The position numbers and the translations under genes were made by a program. The notes below the pieces were generated by a model. That model was given only the letters and a program-made list of their open reading frames with translations. It was not told the DNA's origin and searched no databases. Shown here one piece after another: positions 16,326-38,572 of a stretch of DNA of 64,000 nt; the stretch's first letter is position 1, and each line of letters starts with the position of its first letter. The stretch spans positions 16,158 to 80,157 of IMG/VR virus record IMGVR_UViG_3300031566_005149; one strand, 5' to 3'. Source of the stretch: a virus.

Positions 16326-18344
16326 CTAAATTGAGCTTGAGCTTGAGCTCGTTGATGAAGAACTTACCGAACTCGAACTCAATGAGCTTGAACTGAATGA
16401 GAAACTCAATGAGCTTGAACTCGTTGACGAACTCGATGAGCTTGAACTGGTTGATGAACTCGATGAGCTTGAACTGGAAGAAGTAGAACTGGATGAACTA
16501 CTTGAGCTGACCGATGAACTAGAACTCGAAGAACTGGATGAACCGGTCACATCCTCAATTATAATGACACATAAATCCTGACCGGCCACACAATCGAATG
16601 TTCCACCATAATCATAATCAGCCATACCACCAGTTTGAATGTGAACATAATTCACATTCGTATTCGAAGTTTCATCTGTGAATGGTGTTATATCACCACT
16701 AACTTCGATATTATCAATTATGATTCCAGCATTGGTTGCATCATATGGAATACACATAAGACCGTCTGTAATTTCATCTTCTATTTGAAATTGCATTTCC
16801 ACCGGAATATCAGATACAATTCCAAGATCAAAATATGATCCACAATCATATGTGTCTCTCTGATAGTAAATATTTGTAGAAGTAGAATCAGAATCAATAC
16901 ATATCGTTTGGACATCAGTACTATCTATATTCAGAGCACAGCAAGGTATCCCATCAGCGGTTGCATAATCATACACCTTATGTTCAATTTCAATTGTTCC
17001 TAAAACATCTTCTAAAACAAGACTATTAAAAAGTCTGTTTCTAAATTGAAGTGCTTCAAAGAGAATGAATCTTGCTCGATACGGTTTAAAGAAATTAACA
17101 ACAGGTTTCAGATCTTTAAAGAATGCAGATAGACCATCAACCATATAGGCAAAGTTTATAAAACCAAACCCAATATTATTTCTAACCCATATTGATAAAT
17201 CATTGATTAGAGAACTTAAAACATCTATTGGGAAATCAGTCGTTAAAAGATCATCTATATCTGTTTTTAAAGTTGGGTCCAATACAGATAATATATTTTT
17301 TGCGTCTGTTAGATTTTGTAAAAAGTTTGATGGTTGAATTCTAGTGTATTGATCGTAGTAAGCGTCCAATCTAATAAGAATTCCTTCTCTCGTTTTCGGT
17401 TGGCTGGTTAAAGATTCATAATCCGATTTAATTTGTACGAAGTTTGTGTCTGTTCCGTCATAACATAAAAATAAATCTCCATCAACTCCTGTTGGGAAAT
17501 AGGTATTGAACACATATAATACACCAAGATATAAACCCAAGAGAGAAGATATTCCAGCGGTTGTTCGTATTTCCGCGTTCTGTGGTAATGTCCCCCCTCC
17601 GGAATATACCTCATATTGATCTTGAATTCGTCTGCTTAATATTGCAGATTCTGGACCCTCAGTATCGATTACAGGTCTAATACCAATATAAGGAGCCTTC
17701 GAGGGGAGATTGATTTTTTCTATATTATGAAGTGCTAAGATTTGTGCTTCCGTATATAACCAATGTGGGTCTGAATCAGTAAACTCTGGATATTCAACAT
17801 TTAAAACTCCAGGATTAACAGTTGTTCCAGCAATGGCATTACCACGAAATATTAAAGAAGTGTTACTTTCCAATCTCAGAAAAAATTCAAATATGTCAAC
17901 TTCAGCTAATCCATAATACTGAAGAACATCGACTAATGCTTGAGGAGTTCCTTTAACTTTATAAAGGTTAACAAGATCAAGCATGAGAGCAACTTTAGTT
18001 GATAGTGGGTTTTCATCATAGTCTCGAAGAGTTACAGAATAATTATATCCAAAACTTCTAAATAATTCATCGAGATCCGAATTGCTCATTGAATATGGAT
18101 CTGAGAGTGTGGATGTTGTTTTAACAACGGTTTTATGAGCAGAATATAAATCAACGAGAAATTTTCTAAGTCTTTTATAATCAGCTGTGTTATAAGATAA
18201 CTGATCGATAACATTACCAAAATATATATCTGAACGAGCGTCCTGATCTTTGGCTTCGGCATTTAAGGTGTCGGTGAGGCTACTTGGATTTGCGCCGTTT
18301 GCCGATCTTAAAATATCCCAGAATATATCTATATTAAAAGACAA
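16326..18344 (-). CDS. Baseplate wedge / tail protein (gp7 or P2 gpI-like N-terminus) with C-terminal poly-Ser tail
   Basis: LDELFRSFGY...LVNLYKVKGTPQALVDVL; VNFFKPYRA; about 70-residue Ser tract at the end. Confidence 0.7.
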   Translation of the reverse strand: MSFNIDIFWDILRSANGANPSSLTDTLNAEAKDQDARSDIYFGNVIDQLSYNTADYKRLRKFLVDLYSAHKTVVKTTSTLSDPYSMSNSDLDELFRSFGYNYSVTLRDYDENPLSTKVALMLDLVNLYKVKGTPQALVDVLQYYGLAEVDIFEFFLRLESNTSLIFRGNAIAGTTVNPGVLNVEYPEFTDSDPHWLYTEAQILALHNIEKINLPSKAPYIGIRPVIDTEGPESAILSRRIQDQYEVYSGGGTLPQNAEIRTTAGISSLLGLYLGVLYVFNTYFPTGVDGDLFLCYDGTDTNFVQIKSDYESLTSQPKTREGILIRLDAYYDQYTRIQPSNFLQNLTDAKNILSVLDPTLKTDIDDLLTTDFPIDVLSSLINDLSIWVRNNIGFGFINFAYMVDGLSAFFKDLKPVVNFFKPYRARFILFEALQFRNRLFNSLVLEDVLGTIEIEHKVYDYATADGIPCCALNIDSTDVQTICIDSDSTSTNIYYQRDTYDCGSYFDLGIVSDIPVEMQFQIEDEITDGLMCIPYDATNAGIIIDNIEVSGDITPFTDETSNTNVNYVHIQTGGMADYDYGGTFDCVAGQDLCVIIIEDVTGSSSSSSSSSSVSSSSSSSSTSSSSSSSSSSTSSSSSSSSTSSSSLSFSFSSSSLSSSSVSSSSTSSSSSSI

Positions 18345-21591: not shown

Positions 21592-22617
21592 CTAAAAATA
21601 TGGATCATCTAACTCCTCAGAAGACATATTAACAGTTTTGATTTCTATCTCACATTCATCACAATCCTCTGATGTTACTCCGGTTACTGTAATTTCTCCA
21701 GGTGGGTCAGCATACTTTTCAGCCATTGCTGGACCGGAAGGACCACCACCACCACCTTGATTACATATAGGACATTCATCAACAATATACGTTTTAGTTA
21801 TAGAATCCTCAGTCAATCCAGAATCGCGTACAATCAATTTAATCGTGAAAGTATCTAAGAATGGAAATGCATAATAAAAATCTATTTCTCCAACATCTTC
21901 CAATACTGCCAGGAGATTTCCAATACTATCTCTAACTTCCCATCTACTGTATATAATAGGTGGAAATGTTGTTGATGATGTATTTATGTATTTATAATTG
22001 AATAGTAAAGAATCACAATCTGGTAATTTCTCTCTTTCGAAATCAGCTTGAATTTCTGTTGTGCTTGATGAACTCGAACTGGTCGAAGAGCTGGATGAAC
22101 TGGAGCTAGACGAGATCGAACTACTTGATAAACTAGAACTCGAACTACTTGATAAACTAGAACTCGAACTGATCGAAGAACTGCTGGATGAACTTGAGCT
22201 GCTGCTACTGCTGGACAAACTCGATGAGCTACTTGAGCTCGATGAACTCGAACTCGAACTCGTTGATGATGAGCTGGAGCTGGAGCTGGAACTTGTTGAT
22301 GATGAACTGGAACTGGAACTCGTTGATGAAGAACTTACCGAACTGGAACTTGATGAACTTGAGCTGGAGCTTGACAGGCTTGATGAACTAGATGAGCTCG
22401 AAGAACTTACTGAACTGGAGCTTGATGAACTTGAGCTGGAGCTTGACAGGCTTGATGAACTAGATGAGCTCGAAGAACTTACTGAACTGGAGCTTGACGA
22501 CGAAGACCCCTCGACCCAATTAACAATTAAGTCACCCGCTCTATATGGAGTAGCACATTCATCACATGAATCTACTTGTGAAAAATATGGTACTCCAAAT
22601 GGATTAGCTCCAAACAT
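21592..22617 (-). CDS. Poly-serine virion protein with PKD/Ig-like C-terminal domain
   Basis: About 150-residue Ser tract; W...FTIKLIVRDSG..DS.TK is PKD-like; MFGANPFG..YFS N-terminus. Confidence 0.75.
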   Translation of the reverse strand: MFGANPFGVPYFSQVDSCDECATPYRAGDLIVNWVEGSSSSSSSSVSSSSSSSSSSLSSSSSSSSSSSSVSSSSSSSSSSLSSSSSSSSSSSSVSSSSTSSSSSSSSTSSSSSSSSSSTSSSSSSSSSSSSSSLSSSSSSSSSSSSSSISSSSSLSSSSSSSLSSSSISSSSSSSSSSTSSSSSSTTEIQADFEREKLPDCDSLLFNYKYINTSSTTFPPIIYSRWEVRDSIGNLLAVLEDVGEIDFYYAFPFLDTFTIKLIVRDSGLTEDSITKTYIVDECPICNQGGGGGPSGPAMAEKYADPPGEITVTGVTSEDCDECEIEIKTVNMSSEELDDPYF

Positions 22618-22629
22618 TTAATTTCCTCA

Positions 22630-24025: not shown

Positions 24026-24598
24026 TTAAATTATAATCCATAAACCAGCATAATAATCACAAATTTGAAGGTTTTCATATTGATTAATCGCTTGATTTAA
24101 TTCTCCGTCTATTGTGTTTGTTGCATAACCTTCAACAGTTATCACGCCAGAGTTTATATTTTTTATATTTATTATTCTTCCGGAGCCAGTAGCTTCGAGA
24201 AGATTTATAGTAAAATCACTAGCTGAATCACATACAATTACATCATCATTACCCTCAACTGTATATGTACCTGTTTTTATTACAGAATTTAAAAATCTAA
24301 ATGTTCTAGACGCATAAGCTGTAATTGTGGCAGAAAATCTATCACCAACTATAATGGTTCTTGCAGATGTTCCTTCTTGTTGCCTTGTGATTGTAAATAT
24401 GTCTCCGGTGCTATCTATAACAGTTACGATCTCAGCATTCGTTGATAATGGCATTTCACTAACTGGCCACACAACAGCATTGAACGGAGTTGGTGGAAAT
24501 AATGTTCCATCTCCAGACGTTATTTCTATTTGTGTCCCTGTTGTGGATGGTAATGGTGCTACCACAACTCTTGAATAAGCGAAATTTTTGTATTCCAT
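24026..24598 (-). CDS. Tail-fibre-like protein
   Basis: EIVTV...FTITRQQEGTSA and TINL...GR.INIK...TIDG motifs common in phage fibres. Confidence 0.65.
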   Translation of the reverse strand: MEYKNFAYSRVVVAPLPSTTGTQIEITSGDGTLFPPTPFNAVVWPVSEMPLSTNAEIVTVIDSTGDIFTITRQQEGTSARTIIVGDRFSATITAYASRTFRFLNSVIKTGTYTVEGNDDVIVCDSASDFTINLLEATGSGRIINIKNINSGVITVEGYATNTIDGELNQAINQYENLQICDYYAGLWIII

Positions 24599-24611: not shown

Positions 24612-25229
24612 TTATGATTTAATAATTCTAAACTGAATATATCTGTCATTTGTATTGTGTGCTACTATATAATCGTCCCATGCTGGTAATATATCGTCTT
24701 GATTGAACGGTATTTGTGAGTGTCTTAGTTGTATTGTTGCATAGCATTGCCCATCCTCATATACATCTTCTCTCATTGTAATTATTCTTGGAAATATCGA
24801 ACCGAGATTATAAACAGCACTCCGACCCTCTTCACCACATTCCAATTGTAATTGACCCCAGTCTTGATCACCGATAATGGTTGGGATAAATGCAGTTCCA
24901 TCACTCCAAGTTTGCCAAGAAACTGGATCTTCATCTACAGGATTTTGCTCGCCGAATGCCCAAGCTCCAGCCGAAGCTGTACTTGAAGAACTTGAGCTGG
25001 TTGAGGAACTCGAACTCGAAGAACTAGTGGAACTTGACGAGCTACTACTCGATGAACTTAGGCTCGATGAACTGATTGAAGATGAACTGGAACTGATTGA
25101 AGATGAACTGGAACTGATTGAAGATGAACTGGAACTGATTGAAGATGAACTGGGCTCCCACTCCAATGGTTCTGAGGCGACCCACTCACCATCTTCAAAT
25201 ACCCATTGCATATCAGTTATTTGTGCCAT
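24612..25229 (-). CDS. Poly-serine virion protein
   Basis: About 55-residue Ser tract with (ISSSSSS)n repeats; RYIQFR C-terminus. Confidence 0.75.
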   Translation of the reverse strand: MAQITDMQWVFEDGEWVASEPLEWEPSSSSISSSSSSISSSSSSISSSSSSISSSSLSSSSSSSSSSTSSSSSSSSTSSSSSSTASAGAWAFGEQNPVDEDPVSWQTWSDGTAFIPTIIGDQDWGQLQLECGEEGRSAVYNLGSIFPRIITMREDVYEDGQCYATIQLRHSQIPFNQDDILPAWDDYIVAHNTNDRYIQFRIIKS

Positions 25230-25300: not shown

Positions 25301-26017
25301 CTATACCTCATACGTTATTGTGAAAAAGATATTACCAGCATCGTCAGTGACACCAGAGACAAGTATGAGAGGTGATCCACCACTTGCAATATTAACCAGA
25401 GCGGCAGACTGAGCACCATTTGGTATGATTGCAGTAACGCTTCCCGTAAATGCAACATTAGCAACCAAAACTCCTCCAAAGTAACTGACATTCGTCGCGG
25501 TCTGCGTTGCAAATGGGAGTCCCTGAATATAAAAGCTGTTGTTCGCGGTTAGACCCGTTGTGTTGATTGTTAGCAGCCTACACGTCACGGTTACCTGTCG
25601 ACCAACTTTAGTATACGTCCCTAATGCTGTAGCTGCGCTACCCGTATTTCCACCAGTCGCTGCATCTGCCGGCACCGGAGTCCACGTTCCCTCTTTATAG
25701 TCGTCAAGGGTATTAACAGCTATTAAACCACCTTCGCCGTCAGTAGTTGTATGATCATGAACTGGAAGTGAATGAGTTCCATCCTTTCCAACTATTCCAT
25801 ACCAAACTTCAGTTAGATTAACAGTTAAGGTATCGCTACCTGCATCCAAAATTACTGTTGTATTTGGAGCTCCATATGACGATGATGCGATTGTGCCATA
25901 TTGTAATCCATCTACACCACAGTCAGTTTTAACTCTTCTACCTGCATGAAAATCCAATGTTAAATCTGTTACTACAGTGAATGAGGTACCACTTACATAT
26001 GTTGCTGCTAATCCCAT
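25301..26017 (-). CDS. Tail-fibre-like protein
   Basis: LDDYKEGTWTP, GTYTKVGRQVTV, IQGLPF C-terminal fibre domain; GC shift in the 3' half suggests a swapped module. Confidence 0.7.
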   Translation of the reverse strand: MGLAATYVSGTSFTVVTDLTLDFHAGRRVKTDCGVDGLQYGTIASSSYGAPNTTVILDAGSDTLTVNLTEVWYGIVGKDGTHSLPVHDHTTTDGEGGLIAVNTLDDYKEGTWTPVPADAATGGNTGSAATALGTYTKVGRQVTVTCRLLTINTTGLTANNSFYIQGLPFATQTATNVSYFGGVLVANVAFTGSVTAIIPNGAQSAALVNIASGGSPLILVSGVTDDAGNIFFTITYEV

Positions 26018-26516: not shown

Positions 26517-27479
26517 TTATAAAATTCTTTTTTGGGCTTTAACAGCATTCTGATTCCATAGCTGCTCTAAGAATTTTTTATTTCCAGTATCATCATATTC
26601 TTTTATTTTATTGTATACGTGAGCTGGACAAAATCTCTTATCGAGGTATTTGTGGTGGGGAGGGAGTTTTTGATATCTTAAAGCTTTATTATAAATGCCA
26701 TGAATGTGACGAAAGCCAATTAATTTATCCCAAGTGCCAACACCAGGAACAGATACTTGTGTGTCAGCAGGATTCTCTTTTGGTTTAACAACCTTTAACC
26801 CCAATTCTTCTGATGCAATGTGAAGTCTGGATTCTGGATTTCCCAATCGTTGGTGGGTCTTCTCATACGTTTCAAATGGAACAAAGTGTTTTACATAATG
26901 TTCTGCAAGAGCTCTCATCGCGTCAGACTTGCCAATAAACCCAGTTGTATTTAATAAAGGTCTCCCATTATTATCTTCCCAACCGATTGCTGCGATATCA
27001 GCATCTCCAAGAATATCAAATAGTTTATCGAAGTTTTCTGGTTTATCTAAGACGCAATCACCATTAGCACAATAGATATATGGATGAGAACCAACATCAT
27101 TAATTCCAGATCTTATTAACCATCCATAACCATATGTCACACCACCCCAATCATTCCATTTTGTAGTCGAAAACGAATGCAGTTGGTCAAATACATCTCT
27201 TGGGGGCATAACATTATCATATGTTTGTGTTGGAATAGTTGGGTCTAGATAATTAGCGTAGGATAAGTGTACCCAATATCCTGTTTTTATATGAGATTCA
27301 ACGGAAGATTTTAAAAACATTCTCCCAGATGGATGAGCTGTTAAAACAATAGCACATTTTTTCTGAGATTTTACTGACCAAGAATCATTTTTCATGTACC
27401 CGTTGAGTATATGTTTGGCATAAGATTTTTGTTGTGGTGTTAACTTTGGATCGTTAAGAGTCTCTCTTGTTATTCCCAT
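26517..27479 (-). CDS. Putative GT-A-fold glycosyltransferase, paralog of 29311-30378
   Basis: AIVLTAHP..RMFL, YIYCANGDC (DxD-like position); lies in glycan cluster. Confidence 0.5.
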   Translation of the reverse strand: MGITRETLNDPKLTPQQKSYAKHILNGYMKNDSWSVKSQKKCAIVLTAHPSGRMFLKSSVESHIKTGYWVHLSYANYLDPTIPTQTYDNVMPPRDVFDQLHSFSTTKWNDWGGVTYGYGWLIRSGINDVGSHPYIYCANGDCVLDKPENFDKLFDILGDADIAAIGWEDNNGRPLLNTTGFIGKSDAMRALAEHYVKHFVPFETYEKTHQRLGNPESRLHIASEELGLKVVKPKENPADTQVSVPGVGTWDKLIGFRHIHGIYNKALRYQKLPPHHKYLDKRFCPAHVYNKIKEYDDTGNKKFLEQLWNQNAVKAQKRIL

Positions 27480-28434: not shown

Positions 28435-29307
28435 TCATTTTCCATTTTTACATTTCATATCCTGATACCCACATTCTTTTTTTCTATGAACTCCTCTATG
28501 GCATTTCTTACAGTAAGTAATACATTTATCAATATCAGCACTCTCAAGTGGTTCCCATCTAATTCCTTCAATATGATGACAGTGCAAAGATTTTATAAAA
28601 CCACACTTCCGGCAAGTCCAGTTATCTCTTTCAAAAACCAGATGCCTAAGTTGTGGTTGAACTTCTCTTGATAAGTATTTTGTCTTATTTTCTTCGGCTG
28701 AATATTTTTGTTTTCTATATATTGAGCATTCCTTTTTACATTCATTACTACAATATAATCTATACTCTCCACCGACTGTTCCATTTAAAGCATATATTCT
28801 GCATTGAATTTCACTTCTTTTTGGTGTATACCACCTACCACAATATGTGCATGTAACATCTAAAATTTTAGAATTCTCTTTATTTCTTTTCACCTTTTCA
28901 GCATATTTTATTTGACTTGCATAGGTATTATATAATGGTATATTCTTTTGATAATAACCACCAGACCAATTAGGATGTTTTTTTCCTTTCATTTTTCCTT
29001 TTCGATTTCTTCTTATTAATCTTTTGGTTTCTTCCGACCGAATGAGACCATGGCTCGGACTGTTTTCTCCTCTAAAACGCCCAATTAAAGATTTACTAAT
29101 TTTTTCTTTCGTTTTATCTGAAGGATTTCTACTTGTTAAATAACACGATTTGCTACAAAAATTGCTAATTTTATGAAAGTACGTTAAATATGGATTTCCA
29201 CATTTATCACATTTATCTATATAAACATAAGCATGTTTGTTTTCAAACCATCTATTTGTTTTTAAGTCATATTTTAATTTATTTAAATTATCCCAACATA
29301 TTTTCAT
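28435..29307 (-). CDS. Free-standing HNH endonuclease with NUMOD3 repeats
   Basis: SEETKRLI, HPNWSGG; VFERDNWTCRKCG...LHCHH...CKKCH. Confidence 0.85.
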   Translation of the reverse strand: MKICWDNLNKLKYDLKTNRWFENKHAYVYIDKCDKCGNPYLTYFHKISNFCSKSCYLTSRNPSDKTKEKISKSLIGRFRGENSPSHGLIRSEETKRLIRRNRKGKMKGKKHPNWSGGYYQKNIPLYNTYASQIKYAEKVKRNKENSKILDVTCTYCGRWYTPKRSEIQCRIYALNGTVGGEYRLYCSNECKKECSIYRKQKYSAEENKTKYLSREVQPQLRHLVFERDNWTCRKCGFIKSLHCHHIEGIRWEPLESADIDKCITYCKKCHRGVHRKKECGYQDMKCKNGK

Positions 29308-29310: not shown

Positions 29311-30378
29311 CTATTTATCATATCCTTTTTCTTTTATAAATGTTTTCCATTTAGTTTCATATTCCTCATCTTTAATTATATAGCTATCATATTTCCATTT
29401 TTTAAAAAAACCAGTACGTTCACTATATGGACCAAATTCTTTTCTTTTAGAATTATCATATATCGGTTTGTTGCCGTAATATTCTAAATTTGAATACCGT
29501 CTGTTGAAAAAACTGTCCTCCCCAGTATCATAATACATATACAAATAACGATAATCACCTGTCAAATAAAATTTATATAAAGTATCTTTTTCATGTTTGC
29601 TAAAATATTCTCCATCGTTCCTCATGTCAAAAAAATTTTTTGATAAAGGATTCAAATGTTGTTGACATATTACCTTCATTTCGCCACCAAGATTTCTGAA
29701 TCCAACCAACTCCTTCCAAGTGCTCGGTTGATTGTAACTTGCATAATGATCAATCTTTCCAGCATATTTATGACCCTTCGGAAATAAGGGTTGCATTCTC
29801 GGGACAATGTTTTTAATGTTTCTCTCTTTTACAAAGTCCCTCAATAAAACTTCGGGGCTGTAACTTTCAGGGATATTATTCTCTAACATGGCTATGACAT
29901 AATCAACGAACATATGAAATACCCAACATTTCATTATCATAGCGGCTGTATGTAATGTGCTATCTGCCGTAACACACATCATATCTCCATCATTGCGTTT
30001 AACCACATCTTTAAGTTTATCAACATTCTCTGGCTTCTCCCAAATGCAGTCACCGTTCGTAATTATAACAGCCTCAATATTGTTCAGGGGCCTGATGAGT
30101 CCACCCGCGAGGACCACATCATACAACCACCCTATTCGCTTCTCAGCACCGTATGTGATAGGTTTTGTTACTATTGAATGTGGTATATTCATTATATTAT
30201 CATGTGGCCAGGATTTATGTGAATCATATGATAGTATCACGTACTTTCCAGTTTTCATATAATTGTTTAATGTTGCCTCTAAGAACATGCGATGTCCAGG
30301 ATGGCTAGTGACTATAATTGCTGTATCTGTTCTTAGGATAAAATCATTTTGTTTGTATTGTTTAGATGTTGCTACCAT
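29311..30378 (-). CDS. Putative GT-A-fold glycosyltransferase, paralog of 26517-27479
   Basis: AIIVTSHP..RMFL, ITNGDCIWEKPEN, TWKELVGFR shared with paralog. Confidence 0.5.
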   Translation of the reverse strand: MVATSKQYKQNDFILRTDTAIIVTSHPGHRMFLEATLNNYMKTGKYVILSYDSHKSWPHDNIMNIPHSIVTKPITYGAEKRIGWLYDVVLAGGLIRPLNNIEAVIITNGDCIWEKPENVDKLKDVVKRNDGDMMCVTADSTLHTAAMIMKCWVFHMFVDYVIAMLENNIPESYSPEVLLRDFVKERNIKNIVPRMQPLFPKGHKYAGKIDHYASYNQPSTWKELVGFRNLGGEMKVICQQHLNPLSKNFFDMRNDGEYFSKHEKDTLYKFYLTGDYRYLYMYYDTGEDSFFNRRYSNLEYYGNKPIYDNSKRKEFGPYSERTGFFKKWKYDSYIIKDEEYETKWKTFIKEKGYDK

Positions 30379-31029
30379 TTAAATATCCTTCCACGTTCTA
30401 CCATTTTTAATATTATAAATATGACCCACTGTTATATTATATATTTTTGAAATTTCTTTGGGTTTTAGATTATTTTCATTCAATAAATTTTTTATTTTTC
30501 TGACTGAAATTACATTTAGACTTCTACCATTTTTTTGTTGTCTCTTATTATTTGATTGTTCTTTCTTTGTTGCCCATCTACAGTTCCATGGACCATAAGA
30601 ACCATTATTATCTGGATATCTATCTATACTCATTCCATCTGGACATTCACCCATATCTTTCAAAAAATTTTGAAATGAACTTCTCCACCTTCTACAGACA
30701 AAGATTCCTCTTCCTCCATAATATAAATAATCATTTCTTTTTGGGTTATGACACCTGCGAATCATACCTGACCACACATTATAAAGAGGATGTCGGGTTT
30801 TTCTACGAGACATACCATGTTTTGTTGACCTTTTTATTAATTTCTCATTTCTTAAACACCCACACGATTTTGTTTTATTGAATGTTAAGTCGCATGATCT
30901 AACTTGGTATAGATTCCCACAATCACATTTACACAACCACACCACAAGTCCATTCAATCTTTTTCCAGTCTCTTTTATAACACCTAATCTACCAAACCGT
31001 TTACCCGATAATTCTATTTTTGCTCCCAT
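30379..31029 (-). CDS. Phage HNH-type homing endonuclease (AP2-associated family) with C-terminal HTH
   Basis: GKRFGRL.V, WLCKCDCG, KSCGC, YGGRGI.VC..W, SIDR..DNNGSY.P.NCRWAT. Confidence 0.88.
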   Translation of the reverse strand: MGAKIELSGKRFGRLGVIKETGKRLNGLVVWLCKCDCGNLYQVRSCDLTFNKTKSCGCLRNEKLIKRSTKHGMSRRKTRHPLYNVWSGMIRRCHNPKRNDYLYYGGRGIFVCRRWRSSFQNFLKDMGECPDGMSIDRYPDNNGSYGPWNCRWATKKEQSNNKRQQKNGRSLNVISVRKIKNLLNENNLKPKEISKIYNITVGHIYNIKNGRTWKDI

Positions 31030-31622
31030 TTTCTAAAAACTCTCCTTTTTATAATTGTCAAACCAACGTTAAAAGCCGAAAATGGAAATGTTAAAACATC
31101 GAATCTAGAGTCATTTTCAAGATCAATCCTTAATTTGTATACCTGTCCGCATTTATGATTGACAGACCATGACTCATCTGGTGGTAGAGAATCATGAAGT
31201 ACAATCATCCCATCTTTAACCAAAAGTTCATTCATACTCCAAAAATCTCGCTTTACTATATCATACTCATGCGACCCATCGATAAATCCAAAAGCAATAT
31301 TAGATTTTACTATTTTACTTTTAAAAAAATCATCTGATGTCCCTCTATATATAACAGAATTTTCACAGAAATATCCACTGGTATTTTTCATGTTTTCTAT
31401 TAATGATTTAGAATAGTCGCAATGATAAATTTTTCTGTCATGCTTCATAGCCAACTCAGAAAGAAAAATGGATGTTTCACAAATTCCTATCTCTAATATA
31501 TCTCCCTTAACATAATTCAAAACATAATCAGATAGGACTCCTAACAATCCCCACCTATCCCAACCAAATGAACCTGCTACGACTTGTTTATATAAATTCT
31601 TTAATGCTGGATGTTCACCCAT
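31014..31622 (-). CDS. Class I SAM methyltransferase (Methyltransf_24-like)
   Basis: ILEIG, FIDGSHEY..V..D, GMIVLHD. Confidence 0.88.
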   Translation of the reverse strand: MGEHPALKNLYKQVVAGSFGWDRWGLLGVLSDYVLNYVKGDILEIGICETSIFLSELAMKHDRKIYHCDYSKSLIENMKNTSGYFCENSVIYRGTSDDFFKSKIVKSNIAFGFIDGSHEYDIVKRDFWSMNELLVKDGMIVLHDSLPPDESWSVNHKCGQVYKLRIDLENDSRFDVLTFPFSAFNVGLTIIKRRVFRKWEQK

Positions 31623-32323
31623 TATTTCCTCCCAAAATGTACTTTATTTAAATCTCTCATTTCTTGAACTAATTTATTTCCTTCTAAGTGACATGTTTGC
31701 AAACCTAACGTTCTTATAGACTTAAATAAAGGTTTTGCATCATATAAATAATCTGGAAACATCTGAATCTCAAATGGTATTTTAAGTTTTAACATCATAG
31801 TTATACAATCTGCAAAATCTTCTTTATATGGAGTAACACTTTTTGATCCTCTCTTCGGGTCATCATATTGCTTGGGGAGACGAGCTCTGGACTGTCTAAC
31901 ATCTTCAAAGTCTCTATGTAGTATAATGTATCTAAAATCTTTTCTAACTCTCCACCAAGCTTTTATTATTTCTGGATGCCACATGAATCTAGGGTCTTTA
32001 ATAAAATGAATTGGACCCTGTTTTGGATCGTTGTTGAAATTTTCCATGGCTTGTTTATATGTGTATCCATAACCACCTTTACCCCAATAATCACCCAAAC
32101 ACATTTTATTAACATCTATCCGTCCAGTTTGATTCATTTGTTGGTTAAGATCATGATTTAAACTATGAACAGTTGATAGTTCATACCCAGCATCTACCGC
32201 TTCATGCCAGTTTATATTTTTGCCAGTTTTATAATTCATGGCCATTAAAACTTTAGCAAGAAAAGAAGTGCCACACCTACCAAGGCCGGTTATAACAAGC
32301 ATATTATTCTCCCATAAATTCAA
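31622..32323 (-). CDS. Sulfotransferase-family protein
   Basis: VITGLGRCGTSFLA PAPS loop; IKDPRF; ILHRD. Confidence 0.75.
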   Translation of the reverse strand: MNLWENNMLVITGLGRCGTSFLAKVLMAMNYKTGKNINWHEAVDAGYELSTVHSLNHDLNQQMNQTGRIDVNKMCLGDYWGKGGYGYTYKQAMENFNNDPKQGPIHFIKDPRFMWHPEIIKAWWRVRKDFRYIILHRDFEDVRQSRARLPKQYDDPKRGSKSVTPYKEDFADCITMMLKLKIPFEIQMFPDYLYDAKPLFKSIRTLGLQTCHLEGNKLVQEMRDLNKVHFGRK

Positions 32324-32485: not shown

Positions 32486-32501
32486 ATTTATATTTTGTTC
32501 T
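32486..32501 (-). promoter_or_regulatory. Putative late promoter (AGAACAAAATATAAAT)
   Basis: Consensus copy inside the glycan cluster. Confidence 0.6.
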
Positions 32502-32608
32502 AAGTTATTTTATTAATCTATCCACCAACTATATGAGTTGGATTACCTGCGTTTTTCATTACATCTAAATTTTGCTTTCATTATTTAATTCCTTTCTTGT
32601 TATTTGTG

Positions 32609-33706
32609 TCACCAACCCTTTTTAATGCAATCGATAATGTATTCTCTATCTTCCTTTGTCACCCAAAATCCCACAGGAATACAAATATATTTATCATATA
32701 TACTATCTAAATTTGGAAGATTCTTTTGAAACTTCTTTGTGTATGTATAATTATCAAGTCTTTCGTGGACCCTACTTGTTGCAATGCCACATTGCCCCAT
32801 ATAATTTGCAAAGGAGGTTCTATCTTCAACCAAAATTGTATATAACCAACTAGAAGAAACTCTATCTGTTAATATTTGCGGAGTTTCTATACCATCAACG
32901 TTTTTTAGTTCTTTATCATAGTATTGGGCGTTCGACTGAGCAATTTTAACATTTTCTTCTGCTAATTTTATATTACCCATACCTATAACTGCATTTACAT
33001 CATTAAGATGGAATTTATATCCAGCTTCTTCAATATCATTGACACATCTCATATCTTTAAGATTATTTTCACGACTAATACCAAACCATCTCAAAAGTTT
33101 TCCTCTTTTGTAAGCATCTATTTCTCTTGTAAATAAAATTCCACCGTCTACAGTTGTTAGAAACTTAATAGCCTGTGTGCTTATCATACAATAATCTGAG
33201 TATTGACAATCACCGATTATTGAATCCTTATACATAGAGCCGAAGGTGTGGGCCGCATCTTCTATTAATACTAAATTATTATCTTTGGCTATTTTGGAGA
33301 TTGGTTCTAGATCCACAGGATAACCACCCCAATGAACAACAACAATTGCCTTAGTATCTTCCCGAATCGATTCTTCTATAGACTGCGGAATCATATTAAT
33401 ATCATTTCCAGTGTCTGACCAAATAATATCAGCGCCGCATGTAATAACTGGAGTTATTGACGCCGAGCAGCTCAAGGAAGGGCATATAACAGATGTCCCA
33501 GGACCAACGCCAGCTATATGTAAAGCTAAAGTTAACCCATGTGTACCAGAAGATAGAGACATTACATTTTTATTGTTAAATTTTTTAGATAAAACTTTTT
33601 CATATTCTTCTACTTTTTCGCCCTGCCCAATCCAACCACTGAATAATACTTTTAATAAATCATTTTGAACAGTTGGAGACATGGCAACTTTAAACAGTGG
33701 TATCAT
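32609..33706 (-). CDS. DegT/DnrJ/EryC1/StrS PLP-dependent sugar aminotransferase
   Basis: SSGTHGL, VVHWGG, IEDAAH, STQAIKFLTTVDGG (catalytic Lys). Confidence 0.95.
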   Translation of the reverse strand: MIPLFKVAMSPTVQNDLLKVLFSGWIGQGEKVEEYEKVLSKKFNNKNVMSLSSGTHGLTLALHIAGVGPGTSVICPSLSCSASITPVITCGADIIWSDTGNDINMIPQSIEESIREDTKAIVVVHWGGYPVDLEPISKIAKDNNLVLIEDAAHTFGSMYKDSIIGDCQYSDYCMISTQAIKFLTTVDGGILFTREIDAYKRGKLLRWFGISRENNLKDMRCVNDIEEAGYKFHLNDVNAVIGMGNIKLAEENVKIAQSNAQYYDKELKNVDGIETPQILTDRVSSSWLYTILVEDRTSFANYMGQCGIATSRVHERLDNYTYTKKFQKNLPNLDSIYDKYICIPVGFWVTKEDREYIIDCIKKGW

Positions 33707-34064
33707 TATCTAAATCCTCCTTCTCTTTCCACTTTCCATTTTCTTTAACCTCTATCTTTAAATTTTTCTCGTCCATCATTTTTTCGACTTTTTCCTCTAT
33801 CTTTACACCCTCAATTATTTCCTGTGCTTTTCGATTAACCCATATTCTAAACTTTGTACTATTAGATAATCTCTGCATGGCTATCTTTTTATTTATATGT
33901 TGATGTCTGTGTTCACGACTTTCGCCTCTCGCTCCAGATTCTCTATGAATTATTCGAACTCCCGAATCAGTTTTATTCTGATGTTGTCCACCCTTACCAC
34001 CAGACCTGAAAGTCTGAACCTCGAAGTCTTTCTTGGTTAGTGTGAATAATTTTTTCTTTACCAT
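33690..34064 (-). CDS. RF-1 domain GGQ peptidyl-tRNA hydrolase (ArfB / release-factor-like, no codon-recognition domain)
   Basis: FRSGGKGGQHQNKTDSGVRIIH...RHQHINK; only 124 aa. Confidence 0.92.
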   Translation of the reverse strand: MVKKKLFTLTKKDFEVQTFRSGGKGGQHQNKTDSGVRIIHRESGARGESREHRHQHINKKIAMQRLSNSTKFRIWVNRKAQEIIEGVKIEEKVEKMMDEKNLKIEVKENGKWKEKEDLDNDTTV

Positions 34065-34708
34065 TTTACTCTCCTCAAGTATCCCTTTGGATTAAAAGAC
34101 ATTAAGTGACGTTCACAATTCCAGTCAACCTCAAAATCATCATTTTCTTTCAGAAAGAATTCGACAGCTGCATACGCACCCTCATCTTCATGTTCCCATT
34201 CAACTGGGTGTCCAGGTTTTCCCGCATGAGTGTCTTCAACGATCATATAATAGTCCTTACCAACAAATGCTTCATAAATCCCCATCTCTTGAAGCACATG
34301 ATTACGGCTATGCCATGAATCTAAAATAACTATATTTTTCTTTGTCTTATTTCCAACAATCTTTTTAATAGCTTCAATCGTTAATGGATTGGTACTACTT
34401 CCATGTATAAAATCAATTCTATCTGACCATTCGTATTGAGCTATTTCATCCTCGTCATATCTCTGCTCAATATCACATGTCACAACCCTACCCTGACCCA
34501 TAAGCTCACATATGGATGCATAGAATAAAGCAGAGCCGCCTTTCGCTGTTCCCATTTCCAGAATATAGTCTGGTTTTAACTTAAATATAAGCTCTTGAAT
34601 CACCATCATATCTGGAGGCCATTTGTAACATGGAACTCCAAGCCAGGAATTATCTTCCCAAATTCTAGCTCTCTCATATAGCTTATGGTATTCATCAATA
34701 AAATCCAT
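34058..34708 (-). CDS. CmcI-family (rhamnosyl O-methyltransferase-like) methyltransferase
   Basis: WLGVP..K.P.D...QELI...KPD.ILE.GT..GGSALFYAS, VILDSWH, IVEDT, NPKGYL. Confidence 0.92.
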   Translation of the reverse strand: MDFIDEYHKLYERARIWEDNSWLGVPCYKWPPDMMVIQELIFKLKPDYILEMGTAKGGSALFYASICELMGQGRVVTCDIEQRYDEDEIAQYEWSDRIDFIHGSSTNPLTIEAIKKIVGNKTKKNIVILDSWHSRNHVLQEMGIYEAFVGKDYYMIVEDTHAGKPGHPVEWEHEDEGAYAAVEFFLKENDDFEVDWNCERHLMSFNPKGYLRRVKW

Positions 34709-34709
34709 G

Positions 34710-35321
34710 TTATCTCCTTGTTAAAACAGTAATTGATGGCCAATCTTTTATGACCTTTACATCCCATTTTTTCCTTGCTGCTATAATTGGTAGCACTGAA
34801 CGAATTGGCTTCTTGTTATATTTCTTCATCCACTCAACCTCATCCCTTTCTGCACCCCCACCTTCTAATACAATTCGTCCACCTTTAGAGATTTTGTTTC
34901 CCCAAAGTTCGACAGTCTTTAGAAACGTATTTCCGTCATTTGCTATATCCATGTGGAGTAAATCTATCTCACCCTCAGCGTATTGACTATGAACCTCAAA
35001 TGCATCACCTTGTAATATTGTTACATACTCATCCACCTCGTTGGCTCTAAGCATATTGTAAACATCGACAGCACTTCCATGATTATATTCAAATTTCTCA
35101 AACAGATCATATGCAATAACATGTCCATTAAAATATTCTGCTTTTGAATTTAATTTGGTTGCTTTAGCGAAGTGGTATAAAGAATATCCATCCAATACAC
35201 CACATTCAACAATCAGACTTGGTTTGTATCCAAGAGTCATGATCTCAAATGTTCGTCCGATATTATTTTTCTTGTATGACGATCTCATTGAGTCCAGTGG
35301 TTTATACTCCAATAGATTCAT
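34710..35321 (-). CDS. Class I SAM methyltransferase
   Basis: IVECGVLDGYS, AYDLF, IDLLHMD, GGRIVLEGG. Confidence 0.85.
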   Translation of the reverse strand: MNLLEYKPLDSMRSSYKKNNIGRTFEIMTLGYKPSLIVECGVLDGYSLYHFAKATKLNSKAEYFNGHVIAYDLFEKFEYNHGSAVDVYNMLRANEVDEYVTILQGDAFEVHSQYAEGEIDLLHMDIANDGNTFLKTVELWGNKISKGGRIVLEGGGAERDEVEWMKKYNKKPIRSVLPIIAARKKWDVKVIKDWPSITVLTRR

Positions 35322-35584
35322 TTAGCACCCCGCTCACACATTGTTTTATAGGAATCTTCTATATGTTTACATGAGTCAGCAGCCATAATCAACTCGTGTG
35401 CCAAAATTCTCGCCTCAGATTGTGTGAGATCGAAAGAACCTTTACTAACATATCCATGCACCCATTGTCCTCTAGGTGGTGGATCATTCTTTGGGTCCTC
35501 ATGACATATAAATGGCAATCCATCCAATGTTATAAGAACGTCAGGCCCATCACCCCAAGTACAAGTGGCTTTAATTTCTTCCAT
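35318..35584 (-). CDS. Hypothetical protein
   Basis: SD GGAG; coupled to downstream gene. Confidence 0.6.
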   Translation of the reverse strand: MEEIKATCTWGDGPDVLITLDGLPFICHEDPKNDPPPRGQWVHGYVSKGSFDLTQSEARILAHELIMAADSCKHIEDSYKTMCERGAK

Positions 35585-35695
35585 TCATTTTCTCCTTTGT
35601 TCTCCAGTAAAGTAATAGAAATATCAAAATAAATTGAGATGCTTCCATTAAGAATTCAATAATATTTTCTAAATTTAAAGAAATCCAATATGACA

Positions 35696-38572
35696 TTAGG
35701 CGTCTCCTTTAATCAAATCAACCCAACGATCTTTAACAAAAAATTCTTGGGCTCTATCACGAGCCGCTCTACCCTTATCTCTTAATATATCTGGATTATC
35801 GGTTATCTCTTGAATGATTGGATATAAATCGTCGATCTTATTAATAAGCCAACCTGTCTTTGGAGTTATTCGATCATTTGGACCACCTGTTCTGGAATCA
35901 CATATAGATGCTAGACCACATGCATGTGCTTCTATTACAGTTCGAGGACCTTGATCAGTAAATCCAACTGGTGGAAGATACATAAATAGATTTCCCTGAC
36001 TCATGTATATTGGGACAGGTGGTTGATTCTTTCCATGACGATGAATACGTACATCATCAATTGATAAGAAACTTGGAGCTGGCATGAAAAAGAATTCAGT
36101 CTTATCATTAATACCCCAAATAGTAGCAATCATTGTTTCTATATCTTTTCGATGTTTTGCATCACCTTGAGAATTCAAACACGTAATTCTAAGATTATCA
36201 CCATAGTTCGGTTTAACCTTAAAGAACTCAGTCAAATCAGTTGGTGGTGGTTGAACAAAACACTTATCCTTTGCATCTGGATAGATACGCAAAAACTCAT
36301 TCATTAACATTGAGGATAGGAATCCGTATGCATCCCAACCCTTTGTCCATTCAGTTTTACCAGATGAACCAATTCGATAGTTCAACATAAGTGTTTTTCG
36401 TTTTGCTTTAAGTAAAGGCATAAATTCGGTATACATATCCTTGTTATAGTTGAATATTGTATCTGATGCATAGAACATCGCTAGATCACATTCACCTTCC
36501 CAAGTACCCCACTTCTTCACAAGAACTTCACCGATACGATCTACACTGCTTTGATACTCTCCGCAAATCACACCACTTGGATATAGTTCGATATTATAAC
36601 CTCTGTTCTTCATCATGTTCATTATTTCACAGGTACTTCTTTCCGATCCACCCCAACCGCGCGTAGTTGTCAGCATTCTAAAGGTTGGTTTATTTGGATC
36701 GGCAACTGGTTTGGGGTTCAGCTTTTCATCCAATTCTTTACGAACCCATAAATGACATCTGTGACCACCTTTTCCTGGGCCTTCGAATCCAGCTTCCAGA
36801 TATTTGGCTTGCCATTTTCGCTCAGGTGCTCTTCCAGCATCATGAACAATAACAACATCAGCTAATTCAGCTGCTGCCTTGATTGACCACTCACGATTCT
36901 CTCCACCAGAAGGACCATCAACGAAAGCAAAATCAAAACGCTTTGGTAGAACTGATGGTGGTACAAATTCCTTCGTTGGGTCCCAACTGTAGAATGTATG
37001 TTTCTTCTCGTCGGCTAAGTCCTTGACTTTCTTGATCCATCCTGGCTGTGTTTCAAAGGTATGAACTTCTTCAACAACTGACCCCATAAGAAGCGTTGAA
37101 AGTCCAGCACCAAACTCAAGAATGGTTTTGACTTTATATTTTTCGAGCAACGCTTTAATATGAATCCAATCTTTATCTGTTATAGATGCACCATCCCATT
37201 GATAACCATATTTCTTTAGAAGGTCTTCATCAACTGGTTTCACTGTTGGAGCAACAAAAATCCTCTTCTCTTTCGTAACGTTCTTAAAGTATGTATTAGG
37301 AACTTTCTTTCCCATCTGTAAACGACCACCTTTATAGTATGACATCACACCTTCAACAATAGTTTCAGGTTCTATAATATCAACACACATTGGAACTTGT
37401 TGACCAATCGCATTTGTTTTATCAGAGTGATTCGTACAACCCTTCATACTTGTCTTCCAACATGCTTTATGAGCAGAACAGGGCAAACAACCATTTGTAT
37501 GAATATATTGGTGTCCGTAATATTGAGTGAACCAAGCTGGCTCCCGTGCTCCAGCCAAAACCAAGCAAGGGTTCCCAAATGCGGCACTCAAATGCATATG
37601 CATAGAAACCAAACCAATACTTCCCTGAGAATGTAAAAATATATTGAATAGATCACGAAGGCCAGTATTTCGATCTTCAGTCTTGCCAACATAATTTATA
37701 ACACCATCGAGAACTGGATAAGGATGTCCTTTAACTCCAACCTGAACAACCTTGATTCCTTGTTTCTGCATACCATCAATAACTTCTTGCCAACGGTGAT
37801 ATTGTTTTGCTGGCCATCCAGGTTCTCCACCATAAATGAAAACCCAATAAGGTCCATCAATAAGAGGCTTTCTATTATACTCATCTTGCGTCATCCAAAT
37901 ATCTGGTGTTATCGGCCCCTGTGGGAATGTGACACCAAGTTTATTTTGAACATCCATGCGATACCCATTGGCAAAGTGATGATCCCAATAGTTTGATTTA
38001 TTCGTGGCATATCCAGGACCTATTTTAAGAATATGTTCTGGATCAATAAATTGATGATCGATATTTGGGTTATTATCCCATAGATGTCGAGCTGTCGAAA
38101 TAACACCCACACGCACGTAGGGATATGCCGCTTTAAAATCTCTAACCATTGCTGTGAAACACAAAATATCTCCAATGGCCTGACGATTATGAAAGACAAC
38201 TTCTTTCGGAGGTTCATTTCCAGCAACCATTGGTGCAATTGTTTCCGAGGAAAGCTTTGGCATTTCGACATGACTCGCTAAATCCTCAAGCATTTTAGTT
38301 TGTTGTTTTGGGTCATCCTCTAAGATATGATGAATCTTTCCAGAAGTTGTTATTAACGATGCTGTAAAGGATTCAAGTTTTTCATTTTTTAAATCATCGG
38401 GTAGAGTCGTGGCTTCTATCTGAAATGCTTGAGCCACGGTTGGTCGGGGTGCTTGCACGATCTCTTTTTTGAAGTGAGATCGATTGTCTATCAGTTGTAT
38501 TGGTTTGTCGACTTTTGGTGGGGTTGGTCCATTGAAAACATCTTTAAGTTCGTTCTTTTTCTTTACCATCAA
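35696..38572 (-). CDS. Multidomain GT9 (heptosyltransferase-like) + SAM methyltransferase + GT4-like glycosyltransferase
   Basis: IGDIL...LWDNNPNI, K.Y..WQEV, HLSAAFG.P, CLPC...CW (GT9); ILEFGAGLST, AFVDGP, VHDAGR (MTase); GWGGSE, DQGPRTVIEAHACG (GT-B). Confidence 0.88.
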   Translation of the reverse strand: MMVKKKNELKDVFNGPTPPKVDKPIQLIDNRSHFKKEIVQAPRPTVAQAFQIEATTLPDDLKNEKLESFTASLITTSGKIHHILEDDPKQQTKMLEDLASHVEMPKLSSETIAPMVAGNEPPKEVVFHNRQAIGDILCFTAMVRDFKAAYPYVRVGVISTARHLWDNNPNIDHQFIDPEHILKIGPGYATNKSNYWDHHFANGYRMDVQNKLGVTFPQGPITPDIWMTQDEYNRKPLIDGPYWVFIYGGEPGWPAKQYHRWQEVIDGMQKQGIKVVQVGVKGHPYPVLDGVINYVGKTEDRNTGLRDLFNIFLHSQGSIGLVSMHMHLSAAFGNPCLVLAGAREPAWFTQYYGHQYIHTNGCLPCSAHKACWKTSMKGCTNHSDKTNAIGQQVPMCVDIIEPETIVEGVMSYYKGGRLQMGKKVPNTYFKNVTKEKRIFVAPTVKPVDEDLLKKYGYQWDGASITDKDWIHIKALLEKYKVKTILEFGAGLSTLLMGSVVEEVHTFETQPGWIKKVKDLADEKKHTFYSWDPTKEFVPPSVLPKRFDFAFVDGPSGGENREWSIKAAAELADVVIVHDAGRAPERKWQAKYLEAGFEGPGKGGHRCHLWVRKELDEKLNPKPVADPNKPTFRMLTTTRGWGGSERSTCEIMNMMKNRGYNIELYPSGVICGEYQSSVDRIGEVLVKKWGTWEGECDLAMFYASDTIFNYNKDMYTEFMPLLKAKRKTLMLNYRIGSSGKTEWTKGWDAYGFLSSMLMNEFLRIYPDAKDKCFVQPPPTDLTEFFKVKPNYGDNLRITCLNSQGDAKHRKDIETMIATIWGINDKTEFFFMPAPSFLSIDDVRIHRHGKNQPPVPIYMSQGNLFMYLPPVGFTDQGPRTVIEAHACGLASICDSRTGGPNDRITPKTGWLINKIDDLYPIIQEITDNPDILRDKGRAARDRAQEFFVKDRWVDLIKGDA

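Follow-up and report, generated by a model that had tools for sequence, protein, structure and literature searches.

Polyserine linkers, long runs of serine written in mixed codons, join globular domains in the carbohydrate-active enzymes of bacteria such as Cellvibrio and Saccharophagus. We know of no case in which they travel with a dedicated transferase cluster. Elsewhere in bacteria, serine-rich-repeat (SRR) adhesins are glycosylated by GT4-type and GT-A-type transferases (PMC6973325, PMC5207161). The Gram-positive SRR glycoproteins GspB, Fap1, PsrP and the Limosilactobacillus SRRPs are served by GtfA/GtfB and by follow-on transferases (PMC6973325, PMC5207161, PMC7661464). Such systems are further marked by the accessory-Sec export genes (SecA2/SecY2/Asp) and a cell-wall anchor. 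The serines of autotransporters are O-heptosylated in the cytoplasm by the GT9-related BAHT enzymes TibC and AAH; BAHT forms a dodecamer, and TibC bears a four-cysteine iron finger near the end of its catalytic domain (PMC4358343). Among phages, O-glycosylation of the virion was described for mycobacteriophages (Freeman et al. 2023, Cell Host Microbe 31:1216, as cited in PMC12619734), where, in the account given in PMC12619734, the glycans sit on short extensions at the C-termini of capsid and tail-tube subunits; mass spectrometry is the evidence for them.

Here, we analyzed a 64,000-nucleotide stretch of viral DNA (the window), part of an 80-kb record, that had been predicted to encode a virion glycosylation system. 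We find it fairly probable that fiber and baseplate proteins receive O-glycans on their Ser tracts from soluble phage enzymes in the cytoplasm, much as SRR adhesins do in bacteria. Our literature search returned no paper describing phage poly-Ser tracts together with a cluster of this kind.

Serine tracts and their carrier proteins

Three proteins encoded on the minus strand contain long Ser tracts (70, 148 and 57 residues), in line with the predicted lengths of roughly 55-150. Tract A (16332-16541) covers aa 602-671 of the 672-aa protein A (16326..18344) and contains 60 Ser in 70 residues; tract B (22063-22506) covers aa 38-185 of the 341-aa protein B (21592..22617), with 134 Ser in 148; and tract C (24981-25151) covers aa 27-83 of the 205-aa protein C (24612..25229), with 50 Ser in 57. 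The Ser share is thus 86-91%, and all six Ser codons are present in each tract, which bears out the mixed TCN/AGY coding noted in the original prediction. When all six frames of the 80-kb record were scanned from end to end for any residue, no other homopolymer-rich stretch emerged, so that a general compositional effect does not explain the tracts. Two E/L/D-rich ORFs on the plus strand, 22061-22621 and 24877-25251, were rejected as antisense shadows of tracts B and C. No tRNA-Ser genes that might supply the tracts were found in three whole phage records.

The tracts had been thought not to be products of simple slippage. This holds for trinucleotide slippage but has to be amended for larger units, since tandem DNA units of 21, 24, 27 and 72 nt make up part of the tracts, some of them in copies 97-100% identical (in tract C, a 21-nt unit stands four times with 100% identity), and duplication of such units contributes to tract growth. 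When orthologous tracts of protein A were aligned, Ser occupied both sequences at 47 positions and only one of them at 6. The same Ser codon was used at only 9 of the 47 shared positions, with a TCN/AGY switch at 25; conservation of Ser despite this codon change points to selection on the protein. Among the Logan contigs of the source soils, independent ones run across tract A. Short-read Logan contigs from the same samples end inside both tracts B and C, and the exact lengths of these two are therefore uncertain.

Protein A combines a conserved body of virion structural, putatively baseplate-wedge-like character with a poly-Ser C-terminal tail. Because its predicted structure was poor (pLDDT 55), we used only the sequence-plus-3Di matches in BFVD, which were to jumbo-myovirus entries named "virion structural protein" (E 7e-9 to 6e-4); an Atlas baseplate wedge score of 0.89 was kept as a lead only, and Pfam searches with members of the family gave nothing useful. 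Most homologues of protein A end in an LLQE-G motif, not in poly-Ser. Protein A thus belongs to a family conserved in the tail module, and its resemblance is to structural proteins of jumbo-phage virions. For proteins B and C we found neither homologues nor a structural assignment of their own, apart from a lead to a PKD/Ig-like C-terminal domain in protein B (Atlas PKD clusters, score 0.86). It is their neighbors, and not B and C themselves, that give tail-fiber or structural matches: a tail-fiber-like protein (24026..24598, minus strand; phrog_8469 "tail fiber protein," 3.3e-9) and a fiber-like virion protein (25301..26017, minus strand; phrog_29288, 1.4e-12; phrog_24891 "virion structural protein," 4.5e-4). 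Lysis-type genes (DUF5675, holin-like) also lie in this block.

In other phages, the poly-Ser carriers include a 2164-aa tail-fiber protein (5e-52) and a J-like central tail fiber (4e-45), while many others are unannotatable. Across phages, the tracts range from 57 to more than 1,400 residues and can be terminal; Ser-rich sequence reaches about 1,400-1,800 residues, at 44-52% Ser overall.

An enzyme cluster proposed to build modified sugars

Upstream of the poly-Ser genes and on the same strand lies the cluster, in which the 958-aa protein (35696..38572, minus strand) had been predicted to be a GT9-methyltransferase-GT4 fusion. Alone, this protein gave sub-threshold Pfam matches (GT9 0.0023, MT24 0.023, GT1 0.027). 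Within its family, Glycos_transf_1 (PF00534) was recognized in 18 of 19 members (best 2.7e-9) and GT9 in 2/19 (1.6e-6), and the family profile retrieved GT4 enzymes from the PDB (BshA-like 2jjm at 9e-8, also TreT and PimB). These matches place the C-terminal domain in GT4. Shorter relatives of the N-terminal domain (E 1e-32 to 1e-65) carry PF01075, which supports a GT9 assignment of this domain, and some of them are named "ADP-heptose:LPS heptosyltransferase" in their sources; a phmmer search of the PDB with the GT9-like domain found no match. Toward its end, the GT9-like domain has four cysteines, C365, C371, C379 and C396, that are invariant in the family. An hhalign comparison of the family with a Methyltransf_24 protein of the window was uninformative, so that the SAM-methyltransferase domain in the middle stays only probable. 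Of the predicted fusion, the two glycosyltransferase domains thus stand at the level of the family, and the middle domain remains weak.

The "two GT-A-like paralogs" of the original prediction are a 355-aa protein (29311..30378, minus strand) and a 320-aa protein (26517..27479, minus strand), related at 26% identity (7e-20) and adjoining each other in 32/32 related loci. Neither matches Pfam, NCBIfam or PHROG. The family has no Pfam model, a precomputed Pfam domain occurs in none of its 120 listed homologues, and its profile found no match among PDB sequences. The AF2 model of the 355-aa protein (pLDDT 94) matched glycogenin, CHSY3 and COLGALT1 in Foldseek with a probability of 1.0, and its comparison with VIA gave Z 15.4 and rmsd 4.0 over 188 aligned residues within residues 15-248. 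The protein is accordingly modeled as a GT-A fold with a single Rossmann-like domain. N108-x-D110, between strands 103-108 and 111-113, is invariant and may represent a variant of the DxD motif; H143 is invariant as well.

The DegT aminotransferase and the three methyltransferases that had been proposed were all confirmed by Pfam. The DegT/DnrJ/EryC1 sugar aminotransferase (32609..33706, minus strand; PF01041, 7e-69, 233 bits) matches over its full length (residues 13-361 on profile positions 7-359 of 360) and is kept in nearly all cluster loci; its nearest NCBIfam models are PseC, LegC and ArnB, each under its equivalog cutoff. Two Methyltransf_24 enzymes (34710..35321, 1.8e-12, 48.5 bits; 31014..31622, 7.8e-10, 40 bits; both minus strand) are kept in most cluster loci, and the third methyltransferase (34058..34708, minus strand; PF04989, 3e-51, 174 bits) is similar to CmcI and to rhamnosyl O-methyltransferases (NCBIfam 1.5e-40, under the equivalog cutoff). 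No 4,6-dehydratase to feed DegT was found in the 80-kb record, which is itself 23% complete. The pathway of related phages gains a 4,6-dehydratase and a C-methyltransferase, and complete clusters encode full nucleotide-sugar pathways with dehydratase, aminotransferase, and C- and O-methyltransferases.

The proposed sulfotransferase (31622..32323, minus strand) is a borderline case. Its score for Sulfotransfer_3 (PF13469), 25.9 bits, falls just under the cutoff of 27, and neither phmmer against the PDB nor NCBIfam gave a match; its GLGRCGTS and HRD..SR motifs are conserved, and two of its three homologues match the model (best 1.7e-6), so that we call it probable. Across the 32 related cluster loci, homologues turned up in only 3, and sulfation of the glycan is weakly supported as an accessory step in some phages. 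Two further genes seem peripheral. A stand-alone GGQ (RF-1 domain) protein (33690..34064, minus strand; Pfam RF-1 2e-17; NCBIfam PrfH/RF/ArfB-like) is not kept within the cluster at other loci and is probably outside the glycan chemistry, and a NUMOD3 homing-endonuclease-like insertion (28435..29307, minus strand; Pfam 2.9e-6) is absent from all related loci.

The motif AGAACA-N5-TAAAT, a putative promoter, is common to the cluster and the structural module, as predicted. It has 15 matches with at most one mismatch against 4.5 expected, and none of 100 shuffles reached 15. A copy with one mismatch (38597..38612, minus strand) immediately precedes the 958-aa gene, and matches also lie a short way upstream of the sulfotransferase gene, orf129, orf227 and other genes of the structural module. 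Additional copies are at 32486, 26479, 21553, 19628, 16066 and 14455.

Co-occurrence of tracts and cluster

We scored the association from the enzyme side, collecting 32 viral contigs through the GT-A-like family, all with the enzyme set, and then recording the presence of poly-Ser ORFs. Such ORFs lay within 10 kb of the cluster in 23/32 contigs, on the cluster's strand every time, and were present in 28-29 of the 32 when whole records were read (called from translated records, the nucleotide pattern (WSN)12 not being frame-aware). Among 80 control loci of the same broad clade, anchored on the tail sheath, 8 had poly-Ser ORFs, and 2 of these 8 carry a GT-A-like gene on the same contig. The difference between the two anchors gives a Fisher p of 2e-10, a value that overstates the evidence because related sequences are not statistically independent. 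Minus-strand "poly-Ser" ORFs in records L155 and L156 were set aside as probable shadow frames; they overlap the site that holds, on the other strand, the protease gene of record G028.

The pairing was seen in at least three virion lineages: the present uncultured, sheath-bearing jumbo phage from soil, a complete 63-kb genome with a lambda-J-like central fiber, and a complete 98-kb genome with an SU10-type capsid protein, the latter two with no sheath match. The poly-Ser carriers are non-homologous between the three. The system is therefore not restricted to jumbo phages. The 98-kb genome has four poly-Ser ORFs, and three of its CheckV-complete relatives (MCP 64-90% identical) have no poly-Ser ORF and no GT-A-like, 958-aa or MT24 genes. 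The original proposal, that the poly-Ser proteins and the cluster belong to a single system, thus gains support from their co-occurrence in divergent phages and their joint absence from complete relatives.

The 958-aa family was found in three MAG-binned contigs, two of them from archaeal bins and probably phage; each of the two long MAG-binned contigs also encodes GT-A-like proteins, followed downstream by a poly-Ser ORF. Beyond such sources, the 355-aa protein had no tblastn match in 50,697 deposited phage genomes, nor had the 958-aa protein any among deposited phages, megablast of the region against deposited phages gave none, and pattern-limited scans of 185,579 prokaryote species genomes did not find the transferase families.

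The competing explanation that survives best, which we nevertheless consider unlikely, is that the Ser tracts are plain flexible linkers and that the cluster modifies host LPS or capsule (e.g., in a superinfection block) or phage DNA. GT9 enzymes are classically heptosyltransferases of the LPS core, a role echoed in the names given to relatives of the 958-aa N-terminal domain, and tracts B and C lie between domains, as linkers would. Moreover, two cluster-bearing records have next to no poly-Ser: a 37-kb fragment has no poly-Ser ORF, and the only one in a 120-kb record (50% complete) is 71 aa long. Poly-Ser loci with no visible cluster also exist, all on 1-14% fragments and hence uninformative. 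Linkers and an unrelated cluster would, however, hardly account for joint presence in at least three unrelated virion lineages with joint absence from complete relatives, nor for poly-Ser ORFs that immediately flank the cluster on its strand in a conserved placement. The transferases and other cluster enzymes also have no TM segments, which makes a membrane-bound lipid acceptor less likely.

Proposed mechanism and comparison with known systems

A second alternative would keep the glycosylation and place the poly-Ser proteins outside the virion, as late-made proteins that are secreted, sit on the cell surface or serve as an intracellular scaffold. Proteins B and C, which have no structural homologues and share their block with the lysis-type genes, could be read in this way, as could the many unannotatable carriers. 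Yet protein A belongs to a tail-module family matching virion structural proteins, tail-fiber-like genes flank B and C, carriers in other phages include tail-fiber and J-like proteins, and in G028 a poly-Ser ORF directly precedes the prohead protease and capsid genes; we regard this alternative as improbable. Slimmer still are the chances that the tracts take another modification (O-sulfation, phosphorylation or acylation) or bind non-covalently a glycan polymerized on another carrier, for although a probable sulfotransferase is present and the three or four methyltransferases point to extensive chemistry with small groups, sulfotransferase homologues are rare across the loci while the transferases are universal, and the full nucleotide-sugar pathways of complete clusters indicate that the methyltransferases act on sugars rather than on protein.

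We thus return to the O-glycosylation of Ser tracts by soluble phage enzymes. Late in infection, the GT9-methyltransferase-GT4 fusion, the two GT-A-fold paralogues, DegT, the O-methyltransferases and, in some phages, the sulfotransferase would build one or more modified sugars, which would be transferred in the cytoplasm to the Ser hydroxyls of near-homopolymeric tracts in fiber, baseplate and Ig-like proteins. The glycosylated tracts may then form extended, hydrated, protease-resistant mucin-like stalks or brushes that project distal domains or coat the particle. The role of the tracts as acceptors, the initiating transferase, the nature of the sugar and the effect on the virion are what we infer. 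On a broader proposal we are evenly divided: that poly-Ser tracts and the transferase set constitute a mobile "substrate-and-enzyme" module, spread among unrelated tailed phages of soils and sediments, that builds mucin-like virion glycoprotein fibers. Its tools would be a GT-A family specific to viruses and the GT9-MT-GT4 fusion, in which the GT9-like domain may act as a protein-serine transferase related to BAHT.

To our knowledge, mycobacteriophages are the phages in which virion glycosylation has so far been documented, and there it concerns short tails on the subunits of capsid and tail tube. If our proposal is true, many uncultured soil and sediment phages bear far larger mucin-like stalks or brushes on their fibers and baseplates, made by enzyme families absent from deposited phage genomes. 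A coat of this kind could determine how a virion adsorbs to cells, to the biofilm matrix and to soil particles; it could also make a difference to the stability of the virion and its resistance to protease. The system would also offer a compact enzyme-substrate pair for heavily O-glycosylated polypeptides, with a 205-aa acceptor and a few soluble transferases.

In contrast to the polyserine linkers of carbohydrate-active enzymes, some phage tracts exceed 1,000 residues, and a tract can also be terminal. With the mycobacteriophages, as PMC12619734 presents them, the locus would share phage glycosyltransferases for the phage's own structural proteins; it would differ in its acceptors, which we propose to be poly-Ser tracts of 57 to more than 1,400 residues in fiber, baseplate and accessory proteins, and in its enzyme families, which appear different, the GT-A-like and 958-aa proteins being found in no deposited phage genome searched. 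Of the BAHT enzymes, which hyperglycosylate serines of a repetitive surface protein, the 958-aa family recalls the GT9-related transferase, and its four invariant cysteines, at a comparable place, resemble Cys339/342/358/370 of TibC. Its GT9-like domain differs in matching neither TibC nor any PDB chain by sequence and in being joined to a probable methyltransferase and a GT4 domain, and the acceptors would be poly-Ser rather than beta-helix repeats. The SRR systems differ in that the present system is phage-borne, with near-homopolymeric tracts instead of dipeptide-type repeats, a GT-A family that has no Pfam model, a GT9-MT-GT4 fusion, and a cluster that appears to make amino- and methyl-sugars as well. 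GtfA is absent from the PDB matches of the 958-aa family profile, and the analogy is a functional one. It extends nonetheless to very long Ser-dominated tracts in surface fiber proteins, to dedicated and presumably soluble cytoplasmic glycosyltransferases encoded beside their substrate, to the combination of a GT4-type domain with GT-A-type enzymes and, as the proposed result, to a mucin-like stalk.

Co-occurrence of the enzyme module with poly-Ser genes

The original prediction had treated the glycan cluster (~26517-38572, minus strand) and the poly-Ser proteins encoded near it as one system. The functional link between the two is well supported by comparative genomics, while glycosylation itself, a place of proteins B and C in the virion, and sulfation are unproven. 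With the GT-A-like family as query, represented in the cluster by a 355-aa and a 320-aa protein (29311-30378 and 26517-27479), viral contigs yielded 32 loci. They have in common, at 32 to 59% identity, the 958-aa glycosyltransferase fusion, Methyltransf_24 proteins, DegT and both GT-A paralogues, often with CmcI; this enzyme set is a conserved module. Poly-Ser ORFs lie within 10 kb of the cluster in 23 loci, all on the cluster's strand, and no other homopolymer type was found near the cluster in the 32 loci. For comparison, 80 control loci (863 kb in total) were drawn from the same broad clade by way of its sheath protein. Poly-Ser ORFs occur in 8, and none has cluster genes in its flanks; a GT-A-like gene lies elsewhere on the contig in two of the 8, and the remaining ones are 1-14% fragments. 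The predicted co-occurrence is thus borne out (Fisher's test, p = 2e-10, a value that overstates independence, since the loci are related to one another).

Reading whole records adds further poly-Ser ORFs: seven in the 132-kb record G017, one in G008, and one each, at a contig end, in G020, G024 and G026; G018 has only a 71-aa ORF and G019 none. G017 (L126-L132) encodes 20 tRNAs, none for serine despite its seven poly-Ser ORFs.

The module also occurs in G027 (63 kb, 99% complete) and G028 (98 kb, 100% complete), with six and four poly-Ser ORFs, respectively. Neither record has structural genes in common with the window or a detected sheath. The 1,283-aa poly-Ser ORF of G027 is a lambda-J-like central tail fibre (4e-45). 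In G028, which has an SU10-type capsid protein, the module directly follows the head genes, and a 474-aa ORF (80% Ser) directly precedes them. Both modules add an NDP-sugar 4,6-dehydratase, a sugar C-methyltransferase and an epimerase/reductase, gene sets that make up a full deoxy-amino-methyl-sugar pathway. Three complete genomes of the G028 capsid lineage (93-105 kb; capsid protein 64-90% identical) are without the GT-A-like family, the 958-aa protein, Methyltransf_24 and any poly-Ser ORF.

No relative of the GT-A-like proteins turned up in a pattern-limited scan across the genomes of prokaryote species. Three MAG-binned contigs there carry the 958-aa family, and both long ones have GT-A-like genes and a poly-Ser ORF downstream. 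Contigs L147 and L148, with the 958-aa family, fall in Aenigmatarchaeota / Woesearchaeota (DPANN) bins; L147 has a GT-A-like gene and a poly-Ser ORF as well. Both contigs probably come from phages and were mis-binned, and an archaeal virus host is possible.

Serine tracts and their carriers

The three Ser tracts lie, within a few bases, where they had been predicted, all on the minus strand: 16332-16541 in protein A (70 aa, 86% Ser), 22063-22506 in protein B (148 aa, 91% Ser) and 24981-25151 in protein C (57 aa, 88% Ser). All six Ser codons are used in each, and a six-frame scan of the whole record found no other stretch rich in a single amino acid. Mixed codon usage had been read as a sign of selection on the protein, and comparison of the orthologous protein A tracts of two relatives (bodies 73-75% identical) argues clearly for selection at this level: Ser occurs in both at 47 aligned positions and in one at 6, and among the 47 the codon is identical at 9 and switches between TCN and AGY at 25. 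However, the tracts are partly built of 21-, 24-, 27- and 72-nt units (Tandem Repeats Finder), some 97-100% identical, and recent unit duplication therefore contributes as well. The E/L/D-rich open frames at 22061-22621 and 24877-25251 (plus strand) were rejected as genes, being antisense shadows of the Ser-codon repeats of tracts B and C.

The tracts are real and assembly-fragile. In the source soils, Logan contigs cross the whole of tract A and break within B and C, so the lengths of the latter two are uncertain. Chimeric joints between tracts are frequent in contigs from the source-soil metagenomes. In four soil metagenomes, the tracts (16321-16641, 22099-22419 and 24988-25308) have 3-8 times the summed contig depth of their flanks, which points to many further genes with Ser tracts and similar codon patterns in the same soils.

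Protein A is one member of a family that is conserved across about 20 related contigs, in the tail module. Its own model is poor, yet it matches jumbo-myovirus proteins of 730-900 aa, of which two carry a virion structural annotation; a language-model search gives the baseplate-wedge families as a lead. Most homologues terminate in short repeats of the LLQE-G-x-x-LLQE-G-x-RI-L type (e.g., L004:10001-12070). Only in the window phage and the two relatives nearest to it does a poly-Ser tail occur, which marks the tract as a recent gain in a structural protein that existed before; in these three phages the tail replaces or precedes the LLQE-G motif.

No fetched locus contains a homologue of protein B or C. 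Their genes sit between one for a tail-fibre-like protein and one for a fibre-like virion protein, and a PKD/Ig-like C-terminal domain in protein B is a lead. Elsewhere, a carrier of 2,164 aa is a tail-fibre protein (5e-52), and some tract regions are very long, with Ser-rich spans of 1,425 residues in a 1,788-residue ORF (52% Ser overall) and 1,796 residues in a 1,966-residue ORF (44% Ser overall). Many carriers in more distant loci end, after the tract, in W-x-DR repeats, which may be a docking or trimerisation element; those encoded downstream of the cluster in L029, L030, L031, L033, L034 and L036 have 2-4 copies of this 11-residue repeat.

Enzymes and genome setting of the cluster

The predicted enzyme list largely holds. 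Pfam supports the DegT aminotransferase (7e-69), the CmcI/rhamnosyl O-methyltransferase-like protein (3e-51) and two Methyltransf_24 proteins. The 958-aa protein gives weak Pfam matches when searched alone, but an alignment of 19 family members shows Glycos_transf_1 in 18 and Glyco_transf_9 in 2, and the family profile matches solved GT4 enzymes at 9e-8. Shorter relatives of its N-domain have PF01075, with heptosyltransferase as the source annotation. The 355- and 320-aa proteins are paralogues matching no model in Pfam, NCBIfam or PHROG; the 355-aa protein is modelled with a GT-A fold (pLDDT 94) and has an invariant N-x-D at the expected DxD position. Less firm are the middle domain of the fusion, which retains a SAM-motif-like EFGxGLS block but matches methyltransferases weakly, and the sulfotransferase, which scores just under the Sulfotransfer_3 cut-off, a model that two of three homologues match. 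No cluster transferase has a hydrophobic segment.

The virus record, from soil metagenomes, is 80,157 bp long (23% complete by CheckV), and the window covers bases 16158-80157. The left 39 kb of the window form a minus-strand block encoding tail sheath, baseplate hub and wedge, virion structural and tail-fibre-like proteins. Judged by the sheath protein, its nearest relatives among deposited phages are jumbo phages, phiR1-37 and AR9/PBS1 among them, at 28-30% identity, so the clade is an uncultured one. As predicted, cluster and structural genes are preceded by a common motif, AGAACA-N5-TAAAT (15 matches against 4.5 expected), compatible with their co-expression. ARAGORN finds a tRNA with anticodon CTA (amber suppressor) at 56265-56339 (plus strand).

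Inserted in the cluster, and without conservation in other loci, are two homing-endonuclease-like genes and a gene for a stand-alone GGQ-domain protein. A NUMOD3 homing-endonuclease-like gene (28435-29307, minus strand) is absent from related loci, as are an HNH gene (12796-13707, minus strand) and an unassigned 216-aa ORF with weak HTH matches (30379-31029, minus strand); homing-endonuclease-like genes break up both the cluster and the sheath region. The GGQ (RF-1 domain) protein is ArfB/PrfH-like (33690-34064, minus strand, 124 aa), and G017 has a homologue ~5 kb away from its own poly-Ser ORF block. Any link to the rescue of ribosomes on long Ser runs is purely speculative.

Predicted role and known systems

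We found no literature joining polyserine to phage glycosyltransferases or jumbo phages. In Gram-positive serine-rich-repeat adhesins, soluble transferases encoded beside their substrate glycosylate Ser in the cytoplasm, ahead of the protein's final placement (PMC6973325, PMC5207161). The most economical reading of the module is as a phage counterpart of this system: its soluble transferases would load sugars onto Ser of the neighbour-encoded proteins in the cytoplasm. As a precedent for phage self-glycosylation, mycobacteriophages are reported to modify their capsid and tail-tube subunits on short tails at the C-terminus (cited in PMC12619734). Among BAHT enzymes, TibC and AAH add heptose to autotransporter serines and carry a four-Cys iron finger (PMC4358343). 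A possible parallel is the GT9-like domain of the 958-aa family, which has four invariant Cys at its end; it has no sequence match to these enzymes.
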